From: a virus
Direction: 5' to 3' (one strand)
Length of the DNA: 64,000 bases
IMG/VR virus record: IMGVR_UViG_3300044655_002046
Position numbers and translations under genes: made by a program. This document shows, one piece after another, positions 3,217-28,175 of the stretch (the first letter of the stretch is position 1; every line of letters starts with the position of its first letter). The notes beneath the pieces were generated by a model. It was not told the DNA's origin. It saw only the letters and a program-made list of their open reading frames with translations, and made no database searches.

Positions 3217-3774
3217 TTAAATAGGTAATATGAATTTAACGCGCGTGCGGTCAGTAGGGGTAGCGTGAGTCACGGGAGTGAATAGGAGTGCCATCTGCGC
3301 AGGGCCCGTGTCGAGCCATTCGCCGGGTAGCCAGAAGTCAGCATTAGTATTCGCGCCTGTCTGTAATACTACATCAGTTAGCAGTGATGCAGAACGAAAG
3401 GCCCCGGGTACCTGCTCACCGGATACTATTGCCTCTACGTATAACGCCTGGGGTAATAGGCTTAGGAGCGATGTAAGGTTAGCTCTATCATTAGGTATTA
3501 TGTTCCAGCGCTGGTCCCCCTGTATAATATCACCGCCGCTCTCTACTCTATAGGCCAGTGATACTCGGTGAGGGCGCAATATAACCTGAGTGTTCAGGAA
3601 TGCAGGGCCCTGCGGTATAGGTCTATCCGGCGGCTCATCTATATTGAGTGGGTTATCGGGGGCCCATGTTGTATAGCGGCCTATTCCCACACGTAAGGGC
3701 AGTGTGTCTCTCATTTGTATCAGACGATATATCCGCCCTTCTGGTGTAGTCTTACTTATGATGGTAGTACTCAT
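3217..3774 (-). CDS. Putative baseplate/tail structural protein (185 aa)
   Basis: ORF track; start overlaps the upstream stop at 3774; lies in the tail operon. Confidence 0.55.
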   Translation of the reverse strand: MSTTIISKTTPEGRIYRLIQMRDTLPLRVGIGRYTTWAPDNPLNIDEPPDRPIPQGPAFLNTQVILRPHRVSLAYRVESGGDIIQGDQRWNIIPNDRANLTSLLSLLPQALYVEAIVSGEQVPGAFRSASLLTDVVLQTGANTNADFWLPGEWLDTGPAQMALLFTPVTHATPTDRTRVKFILPI

Positions 3775-18674: not shown

Positions 18675-19028
18675 TTATAGAGCTATAGGGGGATAAATAC
18701 TATAGGGTAGCCCCACTATCCAGTAGTCGGTGGGCGCCGTTAACGCAATAGAACAGTAGCCTCGTCTATTATTTGCCTCTAGTATAAGCGTATAGTAGCC
18801 TTGAGTTAATTGATTATCCTTCTTCCATAGGAATAGGGTGCCCTTCTCCCCCTGTTCACTCTCTCGCTTCCATAGGCGCACACTAGTAGAGCAGGGTATA
18901 AGGCGGGGGTTGGGGCTCTCACTATAAAGAATCTCAAGCGTCAGACTATCTACGCTAGGTAGAGGAGGTGCGTATACTGCTATGCCGTAGCGTATGACTT
19001 GTGGGGCGTCTACTGGTGTTATCATCAA
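18675..19028 (-). CDS. Hypothetical virion-module protein
   Basis: ORF track; closely spaced with the next gene. Confidence 0.55.
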   Translation of the reverse strand: MMITPVDAPQVIRYGIAVYAPPLPSVDSLTLEILYSESPNPRLIPCSTSVRLWKRESEQGEKGTLFLWKKDNQLTQGYYTLILEANNRRGYCSIALTAPTDYWIVGLPYSIYPPIAL

Positions 19029-19055
19029 AAATCATAGGTTTGAAACCCCGTCCTT

Positions 19056-20075
19056 CTAGGACGGCTTTACAGTTCGCCAGGAGTTGTAGGTAAGAAACTT
19101 ACAATCTTCTGGCTTTGCGTTTTGGCAAAGACGTTTCCCAGTAGCAAGACTGTGGAGACTCACGCGAGATTTTACAATATCCTCGCCGCCGACGTAGTAT
19201 TTATCATACTTGGGATGTTTGACGATCCCGCCACGCTTTAATCCTTGAGAGAGGGGACCGCCATAAGGACGGCGATACCCGCCTGCTCCAGGATTGAAAA
19301 CATGCAACTGCCTACGATGCAGCCGGATTGGCCTGCATTCCATAACCACAGTGTTACCCGGGATGGAATTGCCGCCGACCAACAGGTAAGCCAATACCCA
19401 CGAGTCAACACAATGGGCGTTAAACTCGTTGGATAGCTTGTTCTTGGACTTCTTCAAACCCAACAATTGACGGGTTAAGTATGTGTCCTCGTAGCCATTG
19501 AAAACGGTCAAGTTAGCAATCCGACGCAACTCGGAATAGCAGTAATGCTTACTCACTTCAAGGGGAGAGAATGAGACATTCCAACGCTTACATCCTTTGC
19601 GAGTTTTGGCTTTTATATCCTCAATCCTAATGTGAGAGATGGGGAATATTGCAACATAAACCTTTACTATCCTGATCTTGAGTTGCCATCTAGCTTTAGT
19701 AGACGGAGGGATGCCGCCATGTTTACGGTTCTGACGATTGGCACGATAGGGAGTCTTACGATACCGCCGTGCCCGCCTTGTATTGGTGCTCATCTCTTCC
19801 GCATCCTTTACCCAATCAACAGCATGAAACTGCTGATTGAGATATGTGTGGGCCTGAGACTTCACCGTAAATCCTTCGCGCTTAGAGCCGGGGTCAATCC
19901 CTACTACTACAGGCTGAGTAATTCGATTGGATGGTTCAACGTTGAGCCGGATACAGAAAATCCCTTTACGAAAAAATGGGGTTGCCTTGTCTGATTTAAT
20001 CCAACGAGCAGCCCGGTTGGGTGTGGTTGGCATTAGGGGGCGCTGGCTTGAATCGACTACTGGAACGTACTGCAT
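19056..20075 (-). CDS. isrB: IsrB (HNH-less IscB homologue), RNA-guided nickase, ~339 aa
   Basis: PLMP domain (VPVVDSSQRPLMPTTP), RuvC-I GIDPGSK, bridge helix RRARRYRK, RuvC-II IEDI, RuvC-III HCVDS; no HNH. Likely ATG at 20075 (the track starts at 20129). Confidence 0.85.
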   Translation of the reverse strand: MQYVPVVDSSQRPLMPTTPNRAARWIKSDKATPFFRKGIFCIRLNVEPSNRITQPVVVGIDPGSKREGFTVKSQAHTYLNQQFHAVDWVKDAEEMSTNTRRARRYRKTPYRANRQNRKHGGIPPSTKARWQLKIRIVKVYVAIFPISHIRIEDIKAKTRKGCKRWNVSFSPLEVSKHYCYSELRRIANLTVFNGYEDTYLTRQLLGLKKSKNKLSNEFNAHCVDSWVLAYLLVGGNSIPGNTVVMECRPIRLHRRQLHVFNPGAGGYRRPYGGPLSQGLKRGGIVKHPKYDKYYVGGEDIVKSRVSLHSLATGKRLCQNAKPEDCKFLTYNSWRTVKPS

Positions 20076-20298
20076 GGTTTTGATTGCCCTATAAAGGCTA
20101 TTATGTAATTCTCTTCGACTTTGAACCATATAGCAGAGAGAATGCAGATTAGGGAGGTGTCCGCAACATCTTTTGAAGTGCCACCTTCAGCTATTTCAAA
20201 TTGGCTTCTCAGCCATTGTCTAGTCCCACTTACGCTTACTTTCCGCTATTGGCTTTAGCTTCTGGCAAGCCCTGTCGCTTCAGCGCGGGGTTGGTGAC
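20076..20298 (-). ncRNA. omegaRNA scaffold of IsrB
   Basis: ~220-nt non-coding region upstream of isrB beginning with the canonical GTCA.C.ACCCC...GGGCTTG hairpin. Confidence 0.75.
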
Positions 20299-23200
20299 TA
20301 TTTCACTAGGTATGATGATGAGATGATTGGAATGAGGCGACTCCCTATAGCAGTACTGGGTATAGTGTATATAGTACCTCTATCATCGATGAGACGGAGA
20401 TAACTATACTGACCATCATATATAGCATGGCCTACATTAGTCTCCCAATCGTAATCAGTTATCCTGTAGGTTAGCACTGAGGATGTATAGCTATTATCAA
20501 TCTGCACTGGGTACAGAGTACTATTATCGTATGTCCAGCTATCTACTATTATCTGTAAGTCATCCTCTCTACCGGGTAGTAACTCTAGCTGAGTATAGAA
20601 CAGTAATGGATTAGTTAGGCCCCACTTTAATTTAGTATTGATTGATAGTATCTGTGTATCTGCTAGGGCTAGCGTGAGGCGCGGCAGTCGGAAGCATTCA
20701 TCCAACCCTAGTCTCCAGCGGCCCTCCAGGAGCTCTACTGTAGTAGGTAATGGCTCTCGGGTAGTTACAGTATCCTCGTTATCAATAAGCCCCTCAATTA
20801 ATTCGATGATCTCTTGCCTTAACTCCTCATCTCCATTATTGTATAGATCAATTACAGTAGTAGGTAATGGCTCTCGGGGAGTTACAGGATCCTCGTTATC
20901 AATAAGCCTCTCAATTAATTCGATAATCTCTTGCCTTAACTCCTCATCTCCATTATTGTATAGATCAATTAAAGTAGCAGGTAGTGGTTCTCGGGGAGTT
21001 ACAGAATCCTCGTTATCAATAGGCCCCTCAATTAATTCTATGATCTCTTGCCTTAATTCCTCATCTCCATTATTGTATAGATCAATTAAAGTATTGGTAT
21101 ACTGAGTTAAACGTGGTAATAGAGATATAGTATCTAGTGTGTCTAATGTATCAGTAGTACCAGAGCGACCCGGGCGGCTCCTATTAGGCTGTGTATTGAT
21201 ATTACCTATGGCGGTGATTAGGTCGCGGGCCTGATCTACGACACCTAGACAAGAGATTATATCAATTAGTTGCACTATTTTTTGGATAGGGCTACCGCTT
21301 AGCGCGCCTATGATACTGGGCATTAATGCCAGTGACTTACCTAGGGCTAGTCCGGTGCGGCCTATATCAGTTGCTGCTCTGAGAAGGGCGGTATTATTCT
21401 CACCTATGATTTTATCTAGTCCTCCTGATAATAGGGCTTTGATGCCATCACCGCGTATGATGCTACCTATGTCCCCGGTGGATATATTTTTGGCTAGTAG
21501 AGCAGCACTATTATATATACTCTTTCCTAGTTCTTTATAACGTACAGCATCTTTTAGTAAATCAGAGTTCAGTGTAGTGCCTAATGAACTCATGAGAGAG
21601 GTTATCTCCTTATCAACGTCTATGGGGTCGTCATCGGGTTCTCTATTGGCCAGTCGTTTAGCTAAATTATATACTTTATTAGTTACGTCTGCCCCATCTA
21701 TACCCAGTGTTCTACTTAGGTTACGGCTAATAGAGTTAACTATTAGAGCGTCTGTAGTCTGTTCGTTTAGCTTCTGGCCATTTAATAGTGAGGTTCCCAG
21801 CTGTGCTAGTTGAGTGGTGTCTACGTATTGGCTAAGACCTGTGCTCTTGTATAGCCGGTCTAATGCAGGTGATACTAAGGAGTATACCCGCGCTAGGTCT
21901 GTTGAGTTATCGCTTACTACTAGCCCGCGGGCCGAGGTGTCTAGATCACTTAGTTCTAGGAAACCAATAGATAATAACGATAGGGCGTCTTTAATCTCAT
22001 TGATTATATAAGTCTTGAGTGAAGGAGAATTAAGAAATAATTGCTTCAATTCTGCAGGCACTAGATCCTGACTGGTCCCGCCCTCTAGCATGGCTATGGG
22101 GTCTATACTATTATTTCTACTGATAGTTAGTACCTGATTGACTAGAGCGGTTACCTGAGTGGCAGATACACTGAGCCCCAATCGTTGTAGACCCTCTCCT
22201 ACCTTCTGTACCTCTAGTTGCACGTCCCCTGCTATATCTATAAGGGGCGTATTAATAGATATAGTCAGCTCTCCTACTGCTTCACCCTCTCGCTCTAGAT
22301 ATACATCACTGGCTATTGATGGTACTGCGGCCGGTTCTACTGCTGCTAACGCTGGTGGATTCTTAGCTGTATCAGTAGCGCTCTTAGCTATGTTCTCCTT
22401 ACCTGGGTTCTTAGGAGCTACCTTAGAGGCTAATATAGAGCGCCGTATATCCTCTCCTAGTGAGCCTATAGCATCGCCTCCTGGCGTAGTGGCACCCGGC
22501 GTAGTGGCACTTGGCGTAGTGGTAGAGTCATTAGGCTCGGTGGGTACTTGAGCACCATCTGGATCAGACTGCTCTATATCAGACTGAGTTGGTTTATCAG
22601 GAGTATTTGTATTTTTAAGTATGTCCCCACATCCCTTAGGTAAATCAGGTAGTTTAGGGAACTCTGGTATGTGTGGGATGAGGTCGAGGATCAACTCTAT
22701 ATCATCAGGTATAGGCGGTAGTGTATTGAGAGTCATAACTCCGCTCAGGGAGATTACAGACCCCGCGCCTTGGAATATGCTGGGCCCCGCGGTTACGTGA
22801 TTGTGAGTTATGCCCTGGAATGCACTCTTCAACGCATAGGAGCTCATACCTTCAGGGCTGAAGGTCATACCTGATAACCCGACTCCTGGTACAGATGAGT
22901 ATATATTAACGCGGCCCACTGGTATCTCAGCTGGCTCCTCTTTATCATCTGCAGCAGGCTCTCCTATAGGTGATGCGGCTGCTATTATATCTACGTTAGT
23001 GGCTCTTGCTACCATCTCGCCGTAGCTATAAAGCTTCATTTCGTTTAATGATGTGCTGGTGTATGTAGTAGCGTAACTCTTGTAATCGGTAGAGACTCGC
23101 TCCATCTCGCCTAGGGCCGTAGCCTTATCTACTTGGGCTACTGTCTCACTTCTATCTGATAGGCGTAGTCTATTACCGGCTCGCTGTAAGTCGTCCCCCT

Positions 23201-23816
23201 CTATAATTCGAGTGCTATCCTTACCTATTGCGTAGTGGTGGTCGCTAATGTGATTAATGGAGTTCCCGGATTGCACTACATAGTTATCGGTGACGGACTG
23301 CATGAAGGGGGCCCGTTGCGTGATATTGGTATCACTCACAAACTGTATATTATTGGCCACCTGCGTGAGTCTATTGGCAGGGGCAATATTGATATTGCCC
23401 TGACTTATATCAGCTAGCTCTGCTCTATCACTAAAGAGTGAGCTCTCCTTGAGCTTACGGATTCCATCTAGTGATTGCTCAGTATTACCATTAACTGCCG
23501 TACCTACAGCGTTAATATTCTGTTCTGTATTAGACGCTATGCCCTCCCGCAGAACCTGGTTGGCCTGTAGGTTCATGTCTCTTAATTCTAATAGTCCCTC
23601 TACTGCCCGCACGGGCTCCACTATAATCTGAGAGCTAATGCGACGAGGTTCGAACGGAGCGGTAGATGCTGCTGCCTGCCCTAGTGTCTGTGTTGCTTGC
23701 TGATATGCCGTGTTCTTGGATACCTTATTGAGATCATTGAGCGCGGGCCCCAGCGTAGGAGTGTTGCGTCCCGCTCCTAGATCTCCTTTCAGTAGTTGAT
23801 CTTCTATTTTACTCAT
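20298..23816 (-). CDS. Large tail-tip/baseplate protein (1172 aa)
   Basis: ORF track; beta-helix-like N-terminal repeats, helical middle and internal 39-aa repeats; baseplate operon. Confidence 0.55.
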   Translation of the reverse strand: MSKIEDQLLKGDLGAGRNTPTLGPALNDLNKVSKNTAYQQATQTLGQAAASTAPFEPRRISSQIIVEPVRAVEGLLELRDMNLQANQVLREGIASNTEQNINAVGTAVNGNTEQSLDGIRKLKESSLFSDRAELADISQGNINIAPANRLTQVANNIQFVSDTNITQRAPFMQSVTDNYVVQSGNSINHISDHHYAIGKDSTRIIEGDDLQRAGNRLRLSDRSETVAQVDKATALGEMERVSTDYKSYATTYTSTSLNEMKLYSYGEMVARATNVDIIAAASPIGEPAADDKEEPAEIPVGRVNIYSSVPGVGLSGMTFSPEGMSSYALKSAFQGITHNHVTAGPSIFQGAGSVISLSGVMTLNTLPPIPDDIELILDLIPHIPEFPKLPDLPKGCGDILKNTNTPDKPTQSDIEQSDPDGAQVPTEPNDSTTTPSATTPGATTPGGDAIGSLGEDIRRSILASKVAPKNPGKENIAKSATDTAKNPPALAAVEPAAVPSIASDVYLEREGEAVGELTISINTPLIDIAGDVQLEVQKVGEGLQRLGLSVSATQVTALVNQVLTISRNNSIDPIAMLEGGTSQDLVPAELKQLFLNSPSLKTYIINEIKDALSLLSIGFLELSDLDTSARGLVVSDNSTDLARVYSLVSPALDRLYKSTGLSQYVDTTQLAQLGTSLLNGQKLNEQTTDALIVNSISRNLSRTLGIDGADVTNKVYNLAKRLANREPDDDPIDVDKEITSLMSSLGTTLNSDLLKDAVRYKELGKSIYNSAALLAKNISTGDIGSIIRGDGIKALLSGGLDKIIGENNTALLRAATDIGRTGLALGKSLALMPSIIGALSGSPIQKIVQLIDIISCLGVVDQARDLITAIGNINTQPNRSRPGRSGTTDTLDTLDTISLLPRLTQYTNTLIDLYNNGDEELRQEIIELIEGPIDNEDSVTPREPLPATLIDLYNNGDEELRQEIIELIERLIDNEDPVTPREPLPTTVIDLYNNGDEELRQEIIELIEGLIDNEDTVTTREPLPTTVELLEGRWRLGLDECFRLPRLTLALADTQILSINTKLKWGLTNPLLFYTQLELLPGREDDLQIIVDSWTYDNSTLYPVQIDNSYTSSVLTYRITDYDWETNVGHAIYDGQYSYLRLIDDRGTIYTIPSTAIGSRLIPIISSSYLVK
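20738..21093 (-). repeat. Tandem 117-bp repeat x3 (LIDLYNNGDEELRQEIIELIE..IDNED.VT.REPLP)
   Basis: Unit starts at 20741, 20858 and 20975. Confidence 0.95.
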
Positions 23817-24907
23817 AGGTCTAGATCCTGTATGGCTCCTCGTTGATTATCTATTTCAGATATGGCTGCTAGGTTATTACCCATTATCACCCAGTGATCT
23901 AGCGTAGACCGCCGTAAATACTGCGAGGCGGTATATAGTAGATTACGCACCCGTCCTAGGCGTGTTCTCTCTGCATCATCAGCGAGAACGTATACCTCTA
24001 CATCGGGTCGAGGGGAATTATAAGCATGTATGTAGGCCAGGTTGGTCATGTGTGCCGCCATAGCCACTAGGTGCGTATTGAGGCCCCCTGGATACGGCAA
24101 TGAAATTATGATACTGCTGCTTACCTGCCGTAGTAGGCCGGGCTCTGTAGGTATCAACCACTCTCGTAACTCATCTGGTGGGTCCTGGCTTAGGTCCTCA
24201 TAGAGATTAAATAACGCTGGGTCTATTTGTCCGTGCCATAGATCCCATAGTAGGTCCGGCCCGCCTGGCACTACCCAGTAGCGTTCTAGATAGGGAGCCT
24301 CCATATTCTGTATGGCGTTCAGGAAGCCAGCTACGCGAGTTATACCAGTGGGTTGGGATAGAAATGCCCTGAAGAAGCGATGGCTATCTAGTGGCTCCTC
24401 TGTTCCTAGTGTTGCGTAATACTCCTTCCAGTTAGGCTGCATGTTCCATAGAGTACGAGTGGCTTCATATACTAGACGACAGGGGGTGGCATAGTGCATT
24501 CTATAGCCTCCCAGTAGTAGGTAATAGCCTATGCTACTAGCAGAGGTCCCCCATACTCGCCTATCAGTTAGTAGTAGTGTTTCACTATAGTCATTGGGTG
24601 GTAGCCAATTAGGCCTCTCCGCTATACGCCTGTATCTATCTGCGTGCTGAGTAATGACCGTGTAGTCCAGATTACTCGATGTAGGTAGTGATAGTAGTAG
24701 TATGAGCTGTTCCTCTAGAGAGCGCGTTATATCTCTCCACGTAGGACGAGTACGAGGGAGGGGTACGTTACGCATGATACTGGCTAGTCTTTCGTGAGAG
24801 CCCGCTATCAGAATAGATAGATTATTAATAGCCGCCTCATCGATGCGTGTTACAGCATCTGTATTGGCCCCGGGTAATTGAGGTACGGCCTCTAGATTAA
24901 TTAGCAC
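23813..24907 (-). CDS. Hypothetical virion-module protein (364 aa)
   Basis: ORF track; ATGA overlap with the next gene. Confidence 0.6.
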   Translation of the reverse strand: MLINLEAVPQLPGANTDAVTRIDEAAINNLSILIAGSHERLASIMRNVPLPRTRPTWRDITRSLEEQLILLLSLPTSSNLDYTVITQHADRYRRIAERPNWLPPNDYSETLLLTDRRVWGTSASSIGYYLLLGGYRMHYATPCRLVYEATRTLWNMQPNWKEYYATLGTEEPLDSHRFFRAFLSQPTGITRVAGFLNAIQNMEAPYLERYWVVPGGPDLLWDLWHGQIDPALFNLYEDLSQDPPDELREWLIPTEPGLLRQVSSSIIISLPYPGGLNTHLVAMAAHMTNLAYIHAYNSPRPDVEVYVLADDAERTRLGRVRNLLYTASQYLRRSTLDHWVIMGNNLAAISEIDNQRGAIQDLDL

Positions 24908-25409
24908 GATATACTGCTCCTACTATGCTTTGCACTGATTCCTCCGAGTAGCCGAACCAACGCGCTAGTTGGGCCGCCACTATTGGCCTATTAGCCGAGT
25001 TGGCCAGCATCATAAAGTTGTTAATTAATGGTGTATCGGGCATTCGCTTTCTTATTAATACCTCGAGGCCCTCGGAGGTTACATTAGGCCTTTCTCTTCT
25101 ATCAGCTCGCATCTGCATGGCCTGCGGTAGTCTTACACCTATAGTAGCTGCATTTAGCGCTAGTACCTGGCCCGGCATCATACGACGGGGGCTATTAACT
25201 AACTCTATACCACTCAATAGCCATACAGCATCTAACCAGTAGGGCCTGGGTAGTATTACTGTTAGTGCGTAGCCCGCGCGCGCATCACGAGTATCCGCAT
25301 CGTACGTATATTGTGTTAGGAGCCTGAATTGATTTACATGAGAGCTAATACCGCCCGCGCGGGCTATAGCTCTCTCTAGTTCATCCCCATCCTTACTAGT
25401 AGTTCTCAT
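24897..25409 (-). CDS. Hypothetical virion-module protein (170 aa)
   Basis: ORF track. Confidence 0.6.
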   Translation of the reverse strand: MRTTSKDGDELERAIARAGGISSHVNQFRLLTQYTYDADTRDARAGYALTVILPRPYWLDAVWLLSGIELVNSPRRMMPGQVLALNAATIGVRLPQAMQMRADRRERPNVTSEGLEVLIRKRMPDTPLINNFMMLANSANRPIVAAQLARWFGYSEESVQSIVGAVYRAN

Positions 25410-25413
25410 AGGT

Positions 25414-26610
25414 CTATATTAATCCCTTTAATACACTAAGGCGCGGGTCTACTGCATTCAGACCCCCACCTATACCAGATCTTACTCTCCACTCGAAGTG
25501 AAGATGAGGGCCAGTGCTATGGCCAGTACTGCCTACTTCGCCTATTACTTGTCCCTGCTGCACTATGTCTCCTAGTTTAACAGCAAACTTGCTCATATGC
25601 GCGTACCAGCTCTGATTGCCCCCTACGTGTTCTAGTCTAACTATATTACCAAATCCATTATTCTCAAATCCGACTGATATCACTTTGCCCGCCATAGTGG
25701 CTAATATAGGTGTGCCTATTGGGGCCCCTATATCTATGCCGTTGTGCATCCTACCCCAGCGCCAGCCGAACCCACTAGTCAGAGATCCCTTAGAGGGTAT
25801 TATGCCACTCCCAGAGCCTGGCCTACCAGGTATTACCTGACCTGCCAATGCGCTTACCTCATTGAACTGAAACCCGGGGGCTCCTGCTCCATAGGATACA
25901 GTATTATTAGTCATAGCTCTATTAACCTGAGGTATAGAGCCCGTATGAGTAATAGCATCGCGCTGGTTATAGGGCCACTTGAATTCTCCTGTACGATTGA
26001 ATATAGCATTAACAAATCCATCTATACCCTCCGCTAATGCCTGCGCTAACTGTTCATTAGAATAAGCACTATCGCCCGGTATAGTGGGAGCATTACCCCC
26101 ACCACCACCACTCAAAGTAGATGGTGCCGGGCCCTGTCCTCGTCTATAGGCTAGGTACTGTTTATATAGAGTATCTAGCGTATTCTCGCCACCTCGTGCT
26201 TCAGAGGCCCCCGGTAGACTAGTCCATTGTTTCCGTAGCTTGTTATAGTAGCTTAGGATGTTACCACTCATGACCTCCTCTACCGTAGTACCAGTCTCAT
26301 CGAGTATTAAATATAATATCGCTAGATCCTGGTTCAGAGGGCTGAAGTCAGATAACATTCCCCCAGTTTCTCTATTAATACCATCCCATGTCACATCTAA
26401 GATCTGGTATCTACCTGCAGCCGTGGTGTAGTTCCCCCCACTTCGTATTGGGAATCTCTTGCGGGGGTGGTCCGCGTAACTACTGAATTTAGATCCACCG
26501 TATAGTGTGTTGTAGTCGGCCCCCTCAAATTGTCCATCACTAATTACATCCAGGAGGGCCCTAAACTCAGGCCTATTCAGTAGAGGTTGTAGATTCTCTC
26601 TATTCCACAT
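25414..26610 (-). CDS. Lambda-type muramidase fused to an M23 peptidase
   Basis: RALLDVIS...YNTLYGG...TAAGRYQIL..TW; C-terminal HNGIDIG, YAHMS and GHSTGPHLHFE. Confidence 0.9.
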   Translation of the reverse strand: MWNRENLQPLLNRPEFRALLDVISDGQFEGADYNTLYGGSKFSSYADHPRKRFPIRSGGNYTTAAGRYQILDVTWDGINRETGGMLSDFSPLNQDLAILYLILDETGTTVEEVMSGNILSYYNKLRKQWTSLPGASEARGGENTLDTLYKQYLAYRRGQGPAPSTLSGGGGGNAPTIPGDSAYSNEQLAQALAEGIDGFVNAIFNRTGEFKWPYNQRDAITHTGSIPQVNRAMTNNTVSYGAGAPGFQFNEVSALAGQVIPGRPGSGSGIIPSKGSLTSGFGWRWGRMHNGIDIGAPIGTPILATMAGKVISVGFENNGFGNIVRLEHVGGNQSWYAHMSKFAVKLGDIVQQGQVIGEVGSTGHSTGPHLHFEWRVRSGIGGGLNAVDPRLSVLKGLI

Positions 26611-28175
26611 TATCTTGGTGCTCCTCCCTTCAGGGATTGTAGAACAGCACGGGCCTTCCCTTCGAAATAGGCATTTTGTGCTGCTGTATCATTTCCTCTC
26701 ATTAGGGCCTCTACCTGCGCGTTCAATATTCCTACCTCAACTAGCGGTACTCCCCTATTGGGCCCGTATAAGCCATTGCGATGATTTCTCGTGAAGGCGC
26801 CGAATGTTTGAGCTAGTCTATCCTCGTATGGTAGTATTTCCTTACGGCTAGGTATGACGCCAGTGGAACCCCTATACTCCCCTGCCGCACCTGCGTCAAA
26901 GTGTATCTCTAGAACACCCGCGCCATTGGTCTTCTCTTGCACGGCTCTATCTAGCACTGATTGCCAGGAGGTACCTATTGGTGGTAAGAATATAGATAGT
27001 TGGAGACCGTAAGAGGGGGCTAGTCTCTCCATTATTTTGAGGACCTGTTCATTCATCCAGCTCTCCGCTGACTGACCGGGGGCCTGGGGTAGAGATGTGC
27101 CGGCAGCTCCACTAGTACCTGATCTACCATCGCGGTGGCCGGCTGTTATGAACCAGCGAGTAGGCTCCTTATTAGTAGCACTCTGCCAGTCCTTATCATT
27201 CTTACGGCTTTCATTATATGTATCAGATACCTCAGGCCCCCTCTGTGTAGGTATGTCTTGTGGTCTATCCTCAACGCGCGCTATGCCCTCAGCCTGTCGT
27301 TGTAGATTCTGGCGGCTAGCCTCTAGGTAGGCCTGACATAACCGCCTCTCTTCTTGTATACGATAGGAAACTGTTATAGCAGTAGTTGTAGATACAGGCT
27401 CCTCCTCCTGCCCCGCTACCATAGGTGTTATGCCGCTAGGCAGTGACTCCGTGGTAGCCGATGTAGGCCTGATACCCTGCATTCTCTCTAGTCCATCCGC
27501 CCGGGCGCAGTGTCGTGCTGATAGCTGCAGGAGGTGATTGACACTGCTGCGGCGGTCGCCGTTAGCTACCAGGTAGATGTTACTATCACTGAATAATATA
27601 TTCTCTCCGCTTGTATAGAGAGAGCGGGTGCCTGCGTCATTGCGTATCTCGATAACGCCTGGGCGGGGCTGTCTATCATAGGCCTCTGCTAGTGAGCCAT
27701 AATCAGGGCTATCATATGCCGTATCCAGTGAATTGATGCCTGTTACGTGAAAGAAGGCATTGGGCTGTGCTATACGATTAGGATGTCCTAGCGGTTGGTT
27801 GAATGTCTGACCCTCGGGGCCGCGCTGATTAGGCTCCTGTAAATCACCATCTACGTATAGCTTATCGTAGTTACCCTCCGAGGTATATCCGCCTAGGATG
27901 AAAGCATCCTCCATCTTCCCATCATTGAAGCCCACTATGACTGGCTGTCCTATCTCGAGTGGGTTGTATACACCTAGCCCATTATGACCAAAGGGCCCGC
28001 TCATCCTGACGTTATCCAGGATCATACCCTTCATTAGGCGCACCGAGCAGAAGTTACCTAGGCGGCCCTCCCTACTGATACTATGGACTATGCCGCGCTG
28101 TGTGCCCCACTGGCTCTTACTGTATTTATAGGAATGGGGCTCAGAGTATAGGCCGCCATTGTTATTAGCAAACAT
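26610..28175 (-). CDS. Baseplate spike gp5/gpV-like OB-fold fused to an Amidase_3 domain
   Basis: PLEIGQPVIVGFNDGKMEDAFILG (gp5-OB-like); AGH, E, LEIHFDA and LVEVG zinc-amidase motifs. Confidence 0.75.
   Translation of the reverse strand: MFANNNGGLYSEPHSYKYSKSQWGTQRGIVHSISREGRLGNFCSVRLMKGMILDNVRMSGPFGHNGLGVYNPLEIGQPVIVGFNDGKMEDAFILGGYTSEGNYDKLYVDGDLQEPNQRGPEGQTFNQPLGHPNRIAQPNAFFHVTGINSLDTAYDSPDYGSLAEAYDRQPRPGVIEIRNDAGTRSLYTSGENILFSDSNIYLVANGDRRSSVNHLLQLSARHCARADGLERMQGIRPTSATTESLPSGITPMVAGQEEEPVSTTTAITVSYRIQEERRLCQAYLEASRQNLQRQAEGIARVEDRPQDIPTQRGPEVSDTYNESRKNDKDWQSATNKEPTRWFITAGHRDGRSGTSGAAGTSLPQAPGQSAESWMNEQVLKIMERLAPSYGLQLSIFLPPIGTSWQSVLDRAVQEKTNGAGVLEIHFDAGAAGEYRGSTGVIPSRKEILPYEDRLAQTFGAFTRNHRNGLYGPNRGVPLVEVGILNAQVEALMRGNDTAAQNAYFEGKARAVLQSLKGGAPR

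Follow-up and report, generated by a model that had tools for sequence, protein, structure and literature searches.

In bacterial chromosomes, RNA-guided nucleases of the OMEGA class are known to restore the transposons that carry them, and a drive of such elements through phage populations has only been proposed: homing of OMEGA transposons into co-infecting phages is treated as theoretical in a 2026 review (PMC13565253), and the sole experimental hint of OMEGA-driven spread cited there concerns plasmids. In IscB and IsrB systems the guide lies 5' of the omegaRNA scaffold (10.1101/2023.03.14.532601; PMC9581776). tnpA is rare in IscB elements, which tend to share the direction of the upstream gene, and the target-adjacent motif (TAM) of GstIscB, TTCAT, corresponds to ATGAA in the nuclease sense (10.1101/2023.03.14.532601). 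The IsrB of Desulfovirgula thermocuniculi (DtIsrB) reads the G and A of its NTGA TAM with R323 and Q326 and nicks ATGA targets, not ATGG (PMC9581776). An IsrB in the cyanophage Ma-LMM01 and a host-to-phage jump of IsrB at ATGA have both already been published: ORF171 of Ma-LMM01 was labelled IsrB nickase-like from structure prediction (10.1101/2024.12.13.628456), and the IsrB-like orf2067 of Microcystis jumped in culture into gp49 of phage Mic1 (PMC11237433). Here we describe an IsrB-omegaRNA element in a 64,000-nt stretch of viral DNA (IMG/VR record IMGVR_UViG_3300044655_002046; the whole stretch is called the window), located between two tail genes, gp098 and gp099, of a Microcystis phage. 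Our literature search found no paper describing the gp098/gp099 site or its polymorphism.

The element and its insertion site

The element is almost certainly a non-autonomous transposon of the IS200/IS605 type (ISC1-like) whose contents are only an omegaRNA gene and isrB; no tnpA was found within it. Relative to the empty alleles of related phages the inserted DNA reads GTCACC...AAACCTATGATTTTTG (window 20298..19026), and AAATA/ATGA in the empty state becomes AAATA-(1273 nt)-ATGA in the occupied state with zero duplicated bases. The termini are GTCAC... at the omegaRNA side and ...GGACGGGGTTTC at the other end, and after the IsrB open reading frame (ORF) the window continues ...GGACGGGGTTTCAAACCTATGATTTTTG, then ATGATAACACC at the start of gp099. 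The 3' end of gp098 in the window is ...CTA GTG AAA TAG, followed directly by GTCACCAACCCC... of the scaffold, and in the empty alleles the gene terminates GTG AAA TAA. There the stop codon of gp098 and the start codon of gp099 overlap in TAATG, and since the insert falls between TA and ATG of this overlap, with ATGA itself being the gp099 start, the insertion is silent for both proteins. Translation of gp099 starts with the ATG at 19025, where the ORF finder wrongly gives the TTG at 19028.

The omegaRNA-side end is placed at 20298 because position 1 of the HEARO model, the onset of homology at GTCAC in 19 loci and the break point of the empty alleles all fall there. This bears out the first-pass annotation of the sequence, which had the insertion start at the G of the gp098 TAG. 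The empty junction that it had reconstructed, AAA TA/A TGA, is present exactly in two of the empty contigs (L007 and L030), and comparison with the empty alleles confirms that insertion swaps TAA for TAG. At the other end its coordinate was 10 nt short, the true end by empty-allele comparison being 19026; consequently ATGA was the correct TAM sequence in the wrong position, as the ATGA at 19035-19032 is internal to the element and the true TAM lies at 19025-19022. The TAM-proximal end carries a hairpin, CCGTCC-TAGAA-GGACGG (19064-19048), with the IsrB stop codon inside its loop. Such subterminal hairpins are found at both ends (CCCCGCGC..GCGACGGGG and CCGTCC..GGACGG) and are not inverted terminal repeats.

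Table 1. Features of the IsrB-omegaRNA element and its flanks (window coordinates)
Feature	Coordinates	Strand	Description
Whole inserted element	19026..20298	(-)	1273 nt, no target-site duplication; defined against empty alleles L007, L030, L011, L012, L032
TAM ATGA	19022..19025	(-)	gp099 start codon + A; from allele comparison and cyanobacterial sites
TAM-proximal end (transposon left end, LE)	19026..19070	(-)	hairpin + tail GGTTTCAAACCTATGATTTTTG
IsrB ORF	19056..20075	(-)	339 aa; PLMP 13-16; RuvC D61, E152, H221/D224; putative TAM readers R315/Q318
Segment deleted in relic	19123..20262	(-)	1140 nt; deletion between TTGCC(A) direct repeats
omegaRNA scaffold (transposon right end, RE, side)	20076..20298	(-)	about 223 nt; HEARO RF02033 and 19-sequence alignment
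Predicted guide TCATCATACCTAGTGAAATA	20299..20318	(-)	directly 5' of scaffold; 20-nt length assumed
gp098 homologue	20298..23816	(-)	1172 aa; Ma-LMM01 gp098; last codons = guide; third base of TAG (20298) = element base 1
gp099 homologue	18675..19025	(-)	116 aa; begins ATGATAACACC

The protein matches RRXRR (PF14239) with E 6.5e-32 over residues 22-177 of a longer version of the ORF, and it carries an RPLMP motif at residues 12-16; no HNH family was detected in the ORF at E 0.01 or better. Its best relative in the PDB is DtIsrB (8DMB, E 1.7e-32), with a continuous alignment over residues 3-318, while IscB structures align only with residues 3-118. D61 (GIDPG), E152 (IED) and H221/D224 (HCVD) fall opposite the 8DMB motifs DPG, ED and HAND in the alignment and are invariant across 16 homologues, so the earlier statement that all three RuvC acidic residues are present (D61, E152 and D224) stands. 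R315 and Q318 (GKRLCQ) align with R323 and Q326 of DtIsrB (GKRIGQ). By its architecture the protein would be an RNA-guided nickase of the non-target strand, a capacity that is doubtful in the window copy with its G150R beside E152 and seven other derived changes at otherwise invariant positions. The identification as an IsrB-omegaRNA element is supported by the PF14239 match, the lack of HNH, the DtIsrB match and the covariation in the scaffold.

The Rfam match of the scaffold to HEARO is weak (22.9 bits, E 0.047), far below the gathering score of 83, and we therefore relied on our own alignment and its covariation. The alignment took the 260 nt 5' of the ORF from the window, from a second phage copy and from 17 cyanobacterial loci, whose proteins are 75-83% identical. 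In all 19 loci similarity sets in sharply at GTCAC, the flanks further 5' being unrelated, and RNAalifold predicts 49 pairs, 21 of which show compensatory changes; the fold of the single sequence is uninformative (z-score 0.24). The alignment thus points to a conserved, structured omegaRNA scaffold with a guide that would be taken from whatever flanks its 5' side. The original HEARO paper is said to have reported ATGA/GTGA flanks. In this locus the guide would be the 3' end of gp098, as had been proposed, which is supported by the onset of the scaffold and by the match to the empty alleles: 19 of the 20 positions agree, the sole mismatch being the 15th from the TAM. Within the window the only near-match to guide plus NTGA is the guide's own DNA, which is followed by GTCA, one base off a TAM. 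Parts of the ORF and the scaffold were recovered at 95-99% identity in Logan contigs of four metatranscriptomes, contigs which can show neither 5' end, strand nor RNA template, and no contig in these four bridged the guide-scaffold junction with 31 nt on either side.

The cyanobacterial members of the family terminate ...CATTTTTCTG, with ATGA next in line at all 12 of the independent insertion sites, and their flanks diverge right beyond. ATGA likewise adjoins every phage copy. Empty sites were rebuilt for the 12 cyanobacterial loci examined, among which are two probable pairs at a shared site, and at seven the ATG is the first start after an in-frame stop at most 39 nt upstream and opens an ORF of at least 127 aa. 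Judged by these reconstructions, the family appears typically to land immediately before a start codon, between a gene and its upstream signals. The tidy look of the phage insertion follows from the tendency of the ATGA target to coincide with start codons, and the apparently silent insertion inside a stop codon from this habit together with the TAATG overlap. As a side observation, at seven cyanobacterial loci (L014, L016, L018, L022, L023, L025, L027; junctions near 3549) the element lies exactly before the ATG of a same-strand gene with an ORF of 127-561 aa, and the guides at these loci are often Shine-Dalgarno-like, A-rich leaders. It may be that the element must provide translation signals for the displaced gene.

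Allele states in related phages

By a 3.5-kb query the phage is of the Ma-LMM01-like Microcystis myophage type (Fukuivirus), with about 92% identity to Ma-LMM01, MaMV-DC and five further isolates. The gp099 protein served to gather relatives from IMG/VR and JGI metagenomes, and the junction was compared in 15 alleles. The full-length allele is present in the window and in five other contigs (L005, L008, L009, L010 and L031), all with open frames of 339 codons, and a search for this IsrB subfamily elsewhere in IMG/VR returned only four contigs, none of them new. The empty allele was found in five contigs as two haplotypes. In L007 and L030 the junction is ...CCTAGTGAAATA/ATGATAACACC (ATGA), and these contigs, carrying 19 of the 20 guide positions directly before ATGA, contain an empty cognate target. 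In L011, L012 and L032, which constitute one haplotype with the same guide match, it is ...GTGAAATA/ATGGTAACACC (ATGG), a variant that alters codon 2 of gp099. Since Q318 is conserved and DtIsrB is inactive on ATGG, these ATGG alleles are predicted to be resistant to IsrB.

All seven cultured isolates (nine records) and contig L006 carry a relic allele of 134 nt, in which the first 36 nt of the scaffold are fused to the last 98 nt of the element. The expectation that related phages would show the empty allele was therefore met in part, by wild contigs with the predicted junction, the cultured relatives carrying the relic instead. One contig of the metatranscriptome library X4 contains the relic joint and another derives from inside the deleted segment, so that the relic and full forms coexist in one sample.

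The other phage copies of the element are 1274 nt long, with a T6 run where the window has T5. These copies finish ...CCT ATG ATT TTT TGA TG (window 19026-19035), the T6 run giving a mini-ORF of three codons whose TGA overlaps the gp099 ATG, and this mini-ORF could perhaps bring back the translational coupling lost with TAATG. The T5 run of the window shifts the ATG of the mini-ORF into a 27-codon out-of-frame ORF spanning the gp099 start; it could be a genuine change or a homopolymer sequencing error.

Polarised with ten cyanobacterial homologues, the window lineage has eight non-synonymous and four synonymous derived changes in isrB. This ratio rejects an omega (non-synonymous to synonymous rate ratio, dN/dS) of 0.1 (p 0.003), not neutrality, and resembles close pairs of the family at 0.27-0.38; the long-term dN/dS in the IsrB family is 0.06-0.08. 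As neutrality stands and other close pairs are similar, relaxed selection on the window branch is not claimed. Of the 24 element substitutions specific to the window, 13 are G-to-A on the IsrB sense strand, including seven of the eight derived amino-acid changes; in the right flank the proportion is milder (12/39), and because the flanks lean likewise nothing is claimed for a G-to-A excess as special to this copy.

Possible homing and competing explanations

The allele states may be arranged into the following mechanism. The element almost certainly inserted once, directly 5' of ATGA, in an ancestral Fukuivirus, presumably by way of a Y1 TnpA in trans. Read-through from the late gene gp098 would then produce an omegaRNA that has the final ~20 nt of gp098 as its 5' guide, and the IsrB-omegaRNA complex would bind co-infecting genomes in which the guide sequence stands directly before ATGA, that is, the empty allele, and nick their non-target strand. 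Replication would convert the nick into a break, and recombination with an element-bearing genome would copy the element, with nearby gp098/gp099 sequence, into the empty genome, a non-restorative homing with co-conversion. Occupied and relic alleles would be immune because guide match and TAM are split apart in them; the guide's own DNA would be spared, as its next bases, GTCA, are one base from NTGA, and ATGG alleles should evade nicking. When the element had become fixed in a lineage selection would lapse, which would explain both the 134-nt relic of the isolates and the worn copy of the window.

The whole statement, element identity and IsrB-omegaRNA homing taken together, is offered tentatively, as one that we doubt slightly more than we believe, and homing between co-infecting phages, judged by itself, is plausible, though we lean a little against it. 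That a lytic cyanophage population here harbours a natural RNA-guided homing drive, which carries along C-terminal, possibly host-range, sequence of gp098, is a bolder and more doubtful claim. If it is true, lake populations hold all stages of the homing cycle together, namely the empty ATGA allele, the active full-length element, a decaying copy (the window), the immune 134-nt relic and the ATGG allele escaping through its TAM, and the locus would be the first natural case of the "transposon non-restorative homing" between co-infecting phages that is theoretical in PMC13565253. The value of the site lies in this natural series of empty, full, relic and TAM-variant alleles in a cultivable Microcystis/Ma-LMM01-like system, where RNA-guided homing is testable.

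Patterns of divergence bear on homing without deciding for it. The five elements outside the window are 99.5-99.9% identical, and one of their carriers, L031, has an LMM01-like gp098 background whose last 700 nt are about 15% apart from L008; it is a recombinant that switches from LMM01-like to L008-like sequence about 200 nt before the element. For isrB the synonymous divergence (dS) of the window from the other copies is 0.04, compared with 0.12-0.28 for gp099, gp100 and the end of gp098; dN/dS values for 699 nt of gp098 were disregarded, as they had been computed without alignment across indels. An element younger than its flanks was considered as proof of homing and is taken as suggestive only, since the mosaic includes equally similar stretches of gp098. 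The divergence and mosaic patterns would fit homing, and ordinary phage recombination explains them equally.

Several observations weigh against homing by an active IsrB. A sliding-window comparison of the window with L008 gives about 97% identity for other stretches of gp098 too, the whole region being a recombination mosaic, and the sample comprises 15 alleles, with just two haplotypes among the empties. The sixth guide position counted from the TAM is G in the window and in every sampled empty allele and C in the relics and the remaining occupied alleles, so that the commonest guide mismatches the known empty alleles in its probable seed. A scan for promoters and terminators found neither kind of signal upstream on the strand of the element. 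The cut expected from IsrB is a nick, a weaker trigger of recombination than a double-strand break. The window copy itself is worn: its non-synonymous changes (G29D, A99T, G150R, G175S, S274P, G291D, C293Y and A329T) all fall at residues invariant in the other 15 sequences, three of the glycines concerned (G29, G175 and G291) are glycine in DtIsrB as well, and G150R adjoins the catalytic E152. In its scaffold two pairs appear broken only in the window, a C-A in the first hairpin, which is certain, and an A-G in the long-range helix, which is read from the alignment. The description of the element as intact in the first-pass annotation thus holds for the open frame and is doubtful for function, given eight changes at invariant residues and two affected omegaRNA pairs, and its suggestion of a compact editing tool fits this copy poorly. 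For tool-building the copies of L005, L008, L009, L010 and L031 (L008-type) look to be better starting points.

A second view is that the element is a passive passenger, which made a single jump from host to phage at a harmless ATGA, has no function there, is inherited vertically, moves by ordinary recombination and is lost by deletion, the empty alleles never having been hit. The relic in all seven cultured isolates, the wear of the window copy, the 97% identity that is not confined to the element and the mismatch of the main guide variant to the sampled empties at position 6 are as this view expects, and the host-to-phage jump of IsrB at ATGA in Mic1 merely broke a gene (PMC11237433). Against it, polymorphisms in the ORF of the five copies outside the window are five synonymous and two non-synonymous (p 0.009 against neutrality), so IsrB is under purifying selection among these copies. 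The six full-length copies, all with open frames, moreover occur in three diverged gp098 backgrounds, and nearly identical elements are found in backgrounds 15% apart. We regard passive carriage as a serious possibility, if a rather doubtful one.

A purely restorative role, in which a Y1 TnpA of the host or of a phage IS605 excises the element during replication and IsrB does not spread it across phage lineages, is in our view improbable. It is the function demonstrated for TnpB and IscB in bacteria (10.1101/2023.03.14.532601), and a Y1 TnpA is encoded in Fukuivirus (at 25743-26111 in Ma-LMM01, and on the contig of L011); but the IS605 of that TnpA has ends unlike those of this element, the element itself lacks tnpA, and since the empties have G at position -6 and most occupied alleles C, the sampled empties are not fresh excision products of most occupied alleles. 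Little credence is likewise given to interference without copying, in which the nick would mainly harm competing empty-allele genomes by marker exclusion or killing to the gain of the carrier phage: phage homing endonucleases can behave so (PMC11620839), and ATGG in three of the five empty contigs would be expected under escape pressure, but the ATGG contigs are one haplotype, a single nick among many replicating genomes is a weak weapon, and our data cannot separate this possibility from homing.

Related elements and comparison with known systems

Some further observations concern the neighbouring gene and related elements. The C-terminal part of gp098 contains a hypervariable block (window 20762-21100 and about 520-712 nt before the stop) that is about 55% different between haplogroups, and an indel relative to L005/L008; this variable block adjoining the element suggests that gp098 may be a receptor-binding or otherwise fast-evolving tail protein. 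The end motif GCCGTCCTAGAAGGACGGGGTTTC (window 19037-19071) is present in about 17-20 copies per cyanobacterial genome (G002, G003), far above the count of IsrB, and occurs in metatranscriptome contigs with other flanks (depth 77); the hairpin end motif is probably common to a family of miniature elements. A 34-nt stretch of the LE is identical in phage Mic1, where an ORF-less element of about 298 nt (L004:2748-3045; MN013189 ~23334-23631) lies between the paralogues Mic1_18 and Mic1_19. Its sequence begins GTCACTAACCCCG and closes with the 34 nt of the window element; 11 nt further on comes the ATGA that is the start of Mic1_19. The middle has no HEARO match and bears no relation to the IsrB scaffold. 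The whole resembles a miniature element using the same transposase; a deleted copy of the window element is ruled out, as only the first ~20 and the last 34 nt match.

Two Fukuivirus loci (L034, Ma-LMM01 24243-27611; L035, the IMG/VR contig of L011) contain an IS605-type pair, a Y1 tnpA of 148-163 aa divergent from a tnpB-like ORF of 397-413 aa, whose ends have zero similarity to those of the IsrB element. ORF171 of Ma-LMM01 (152163-152693, (-), within L033, 150663-154193) is a second, distant IsrB with 35% identity over 203 aa and a HEARO-like RNA upstream (27.4 bits). Fukuivirus genomes thus carry at least two OMEGA loci besides the gp098/gp099 site. A 204-nt match of 67% to the N-terminal coding part of IsrB in an uncultured 485-kb phage (LR745208.1 280013-280216) suggests an IscB/IsrB-like gene in this huge phage.

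Among the described systems the element is comparable first to DtIsrB (8DMB; PMC9581776), with which it shares PLMP, a split RuvC and a TAM-interacting (TI) domain without HNH, an omegaRNA that precedes the ORF and begins with the guide, a TAM of NTGA type and R/Q TAM readers, here R315/Q318. It differs in that identity is only about one third, 223 nt of scaffold instead of 262 nt precede the ORF, and DtIsrB resides in a bacterial chromosome, whereas here the setting is a lytic cyanophage and activity is predicted. ORF171 of Ma-LMM01 (10.1101/2024.12.13.628456) comes from the same phage genus and is likewise of the RRXRR family, preceded by a HEARO-like RNA, but it occupies another locus (about 152 kb) and is distant in sequence, and at gp098/gp099 Ma-LMM01 has only the 134-nt relic.

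In its layout the element resembles the Geobacillus IscB elements (ISGst; Meers et al., 10.1101/2023.03.14.532601), where the omegaRNA is bounded by the RE, the TAM abuts the LE, tnpA is lacking from the element, the orientation is that of the upstream gene, and guide and TAM together define the empty donor joint. Those elements, in contrast, encode an IscB with HNH that makes double-strand breaks, and they were studied as restorative homing on a chromosome with a known TnpA. The insertion into gp49 of Mic1 (PMC11237433) took place in the same host-phage community and also moved IsrB with about 200 nt upstream and tens of nt downstream to an ATGA; it broke a gene and lowered infectivity in culture, whereas the gp098/gp099 element is silent for both neighbours and occupies a single fixed site, at which wild phages are polymorphic and a relic form occurs. 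The free-standing homing endonuclease genes of T-even phages (SegF, SegB and MobE; PMC13565253) are similar in that a nuclease gene lies between conserved late genes and targets the cognate site of relatives without it, with co-conversion of flanks expected and a cycle of gain, decay and loss. There, recognition is by protein, the cut is a break and self is told from non-self by substitutions; at the gp098/gp099 site the corresponding roles would be played by an RNA guide with its TAM, by a nick and by the presence of the insert.

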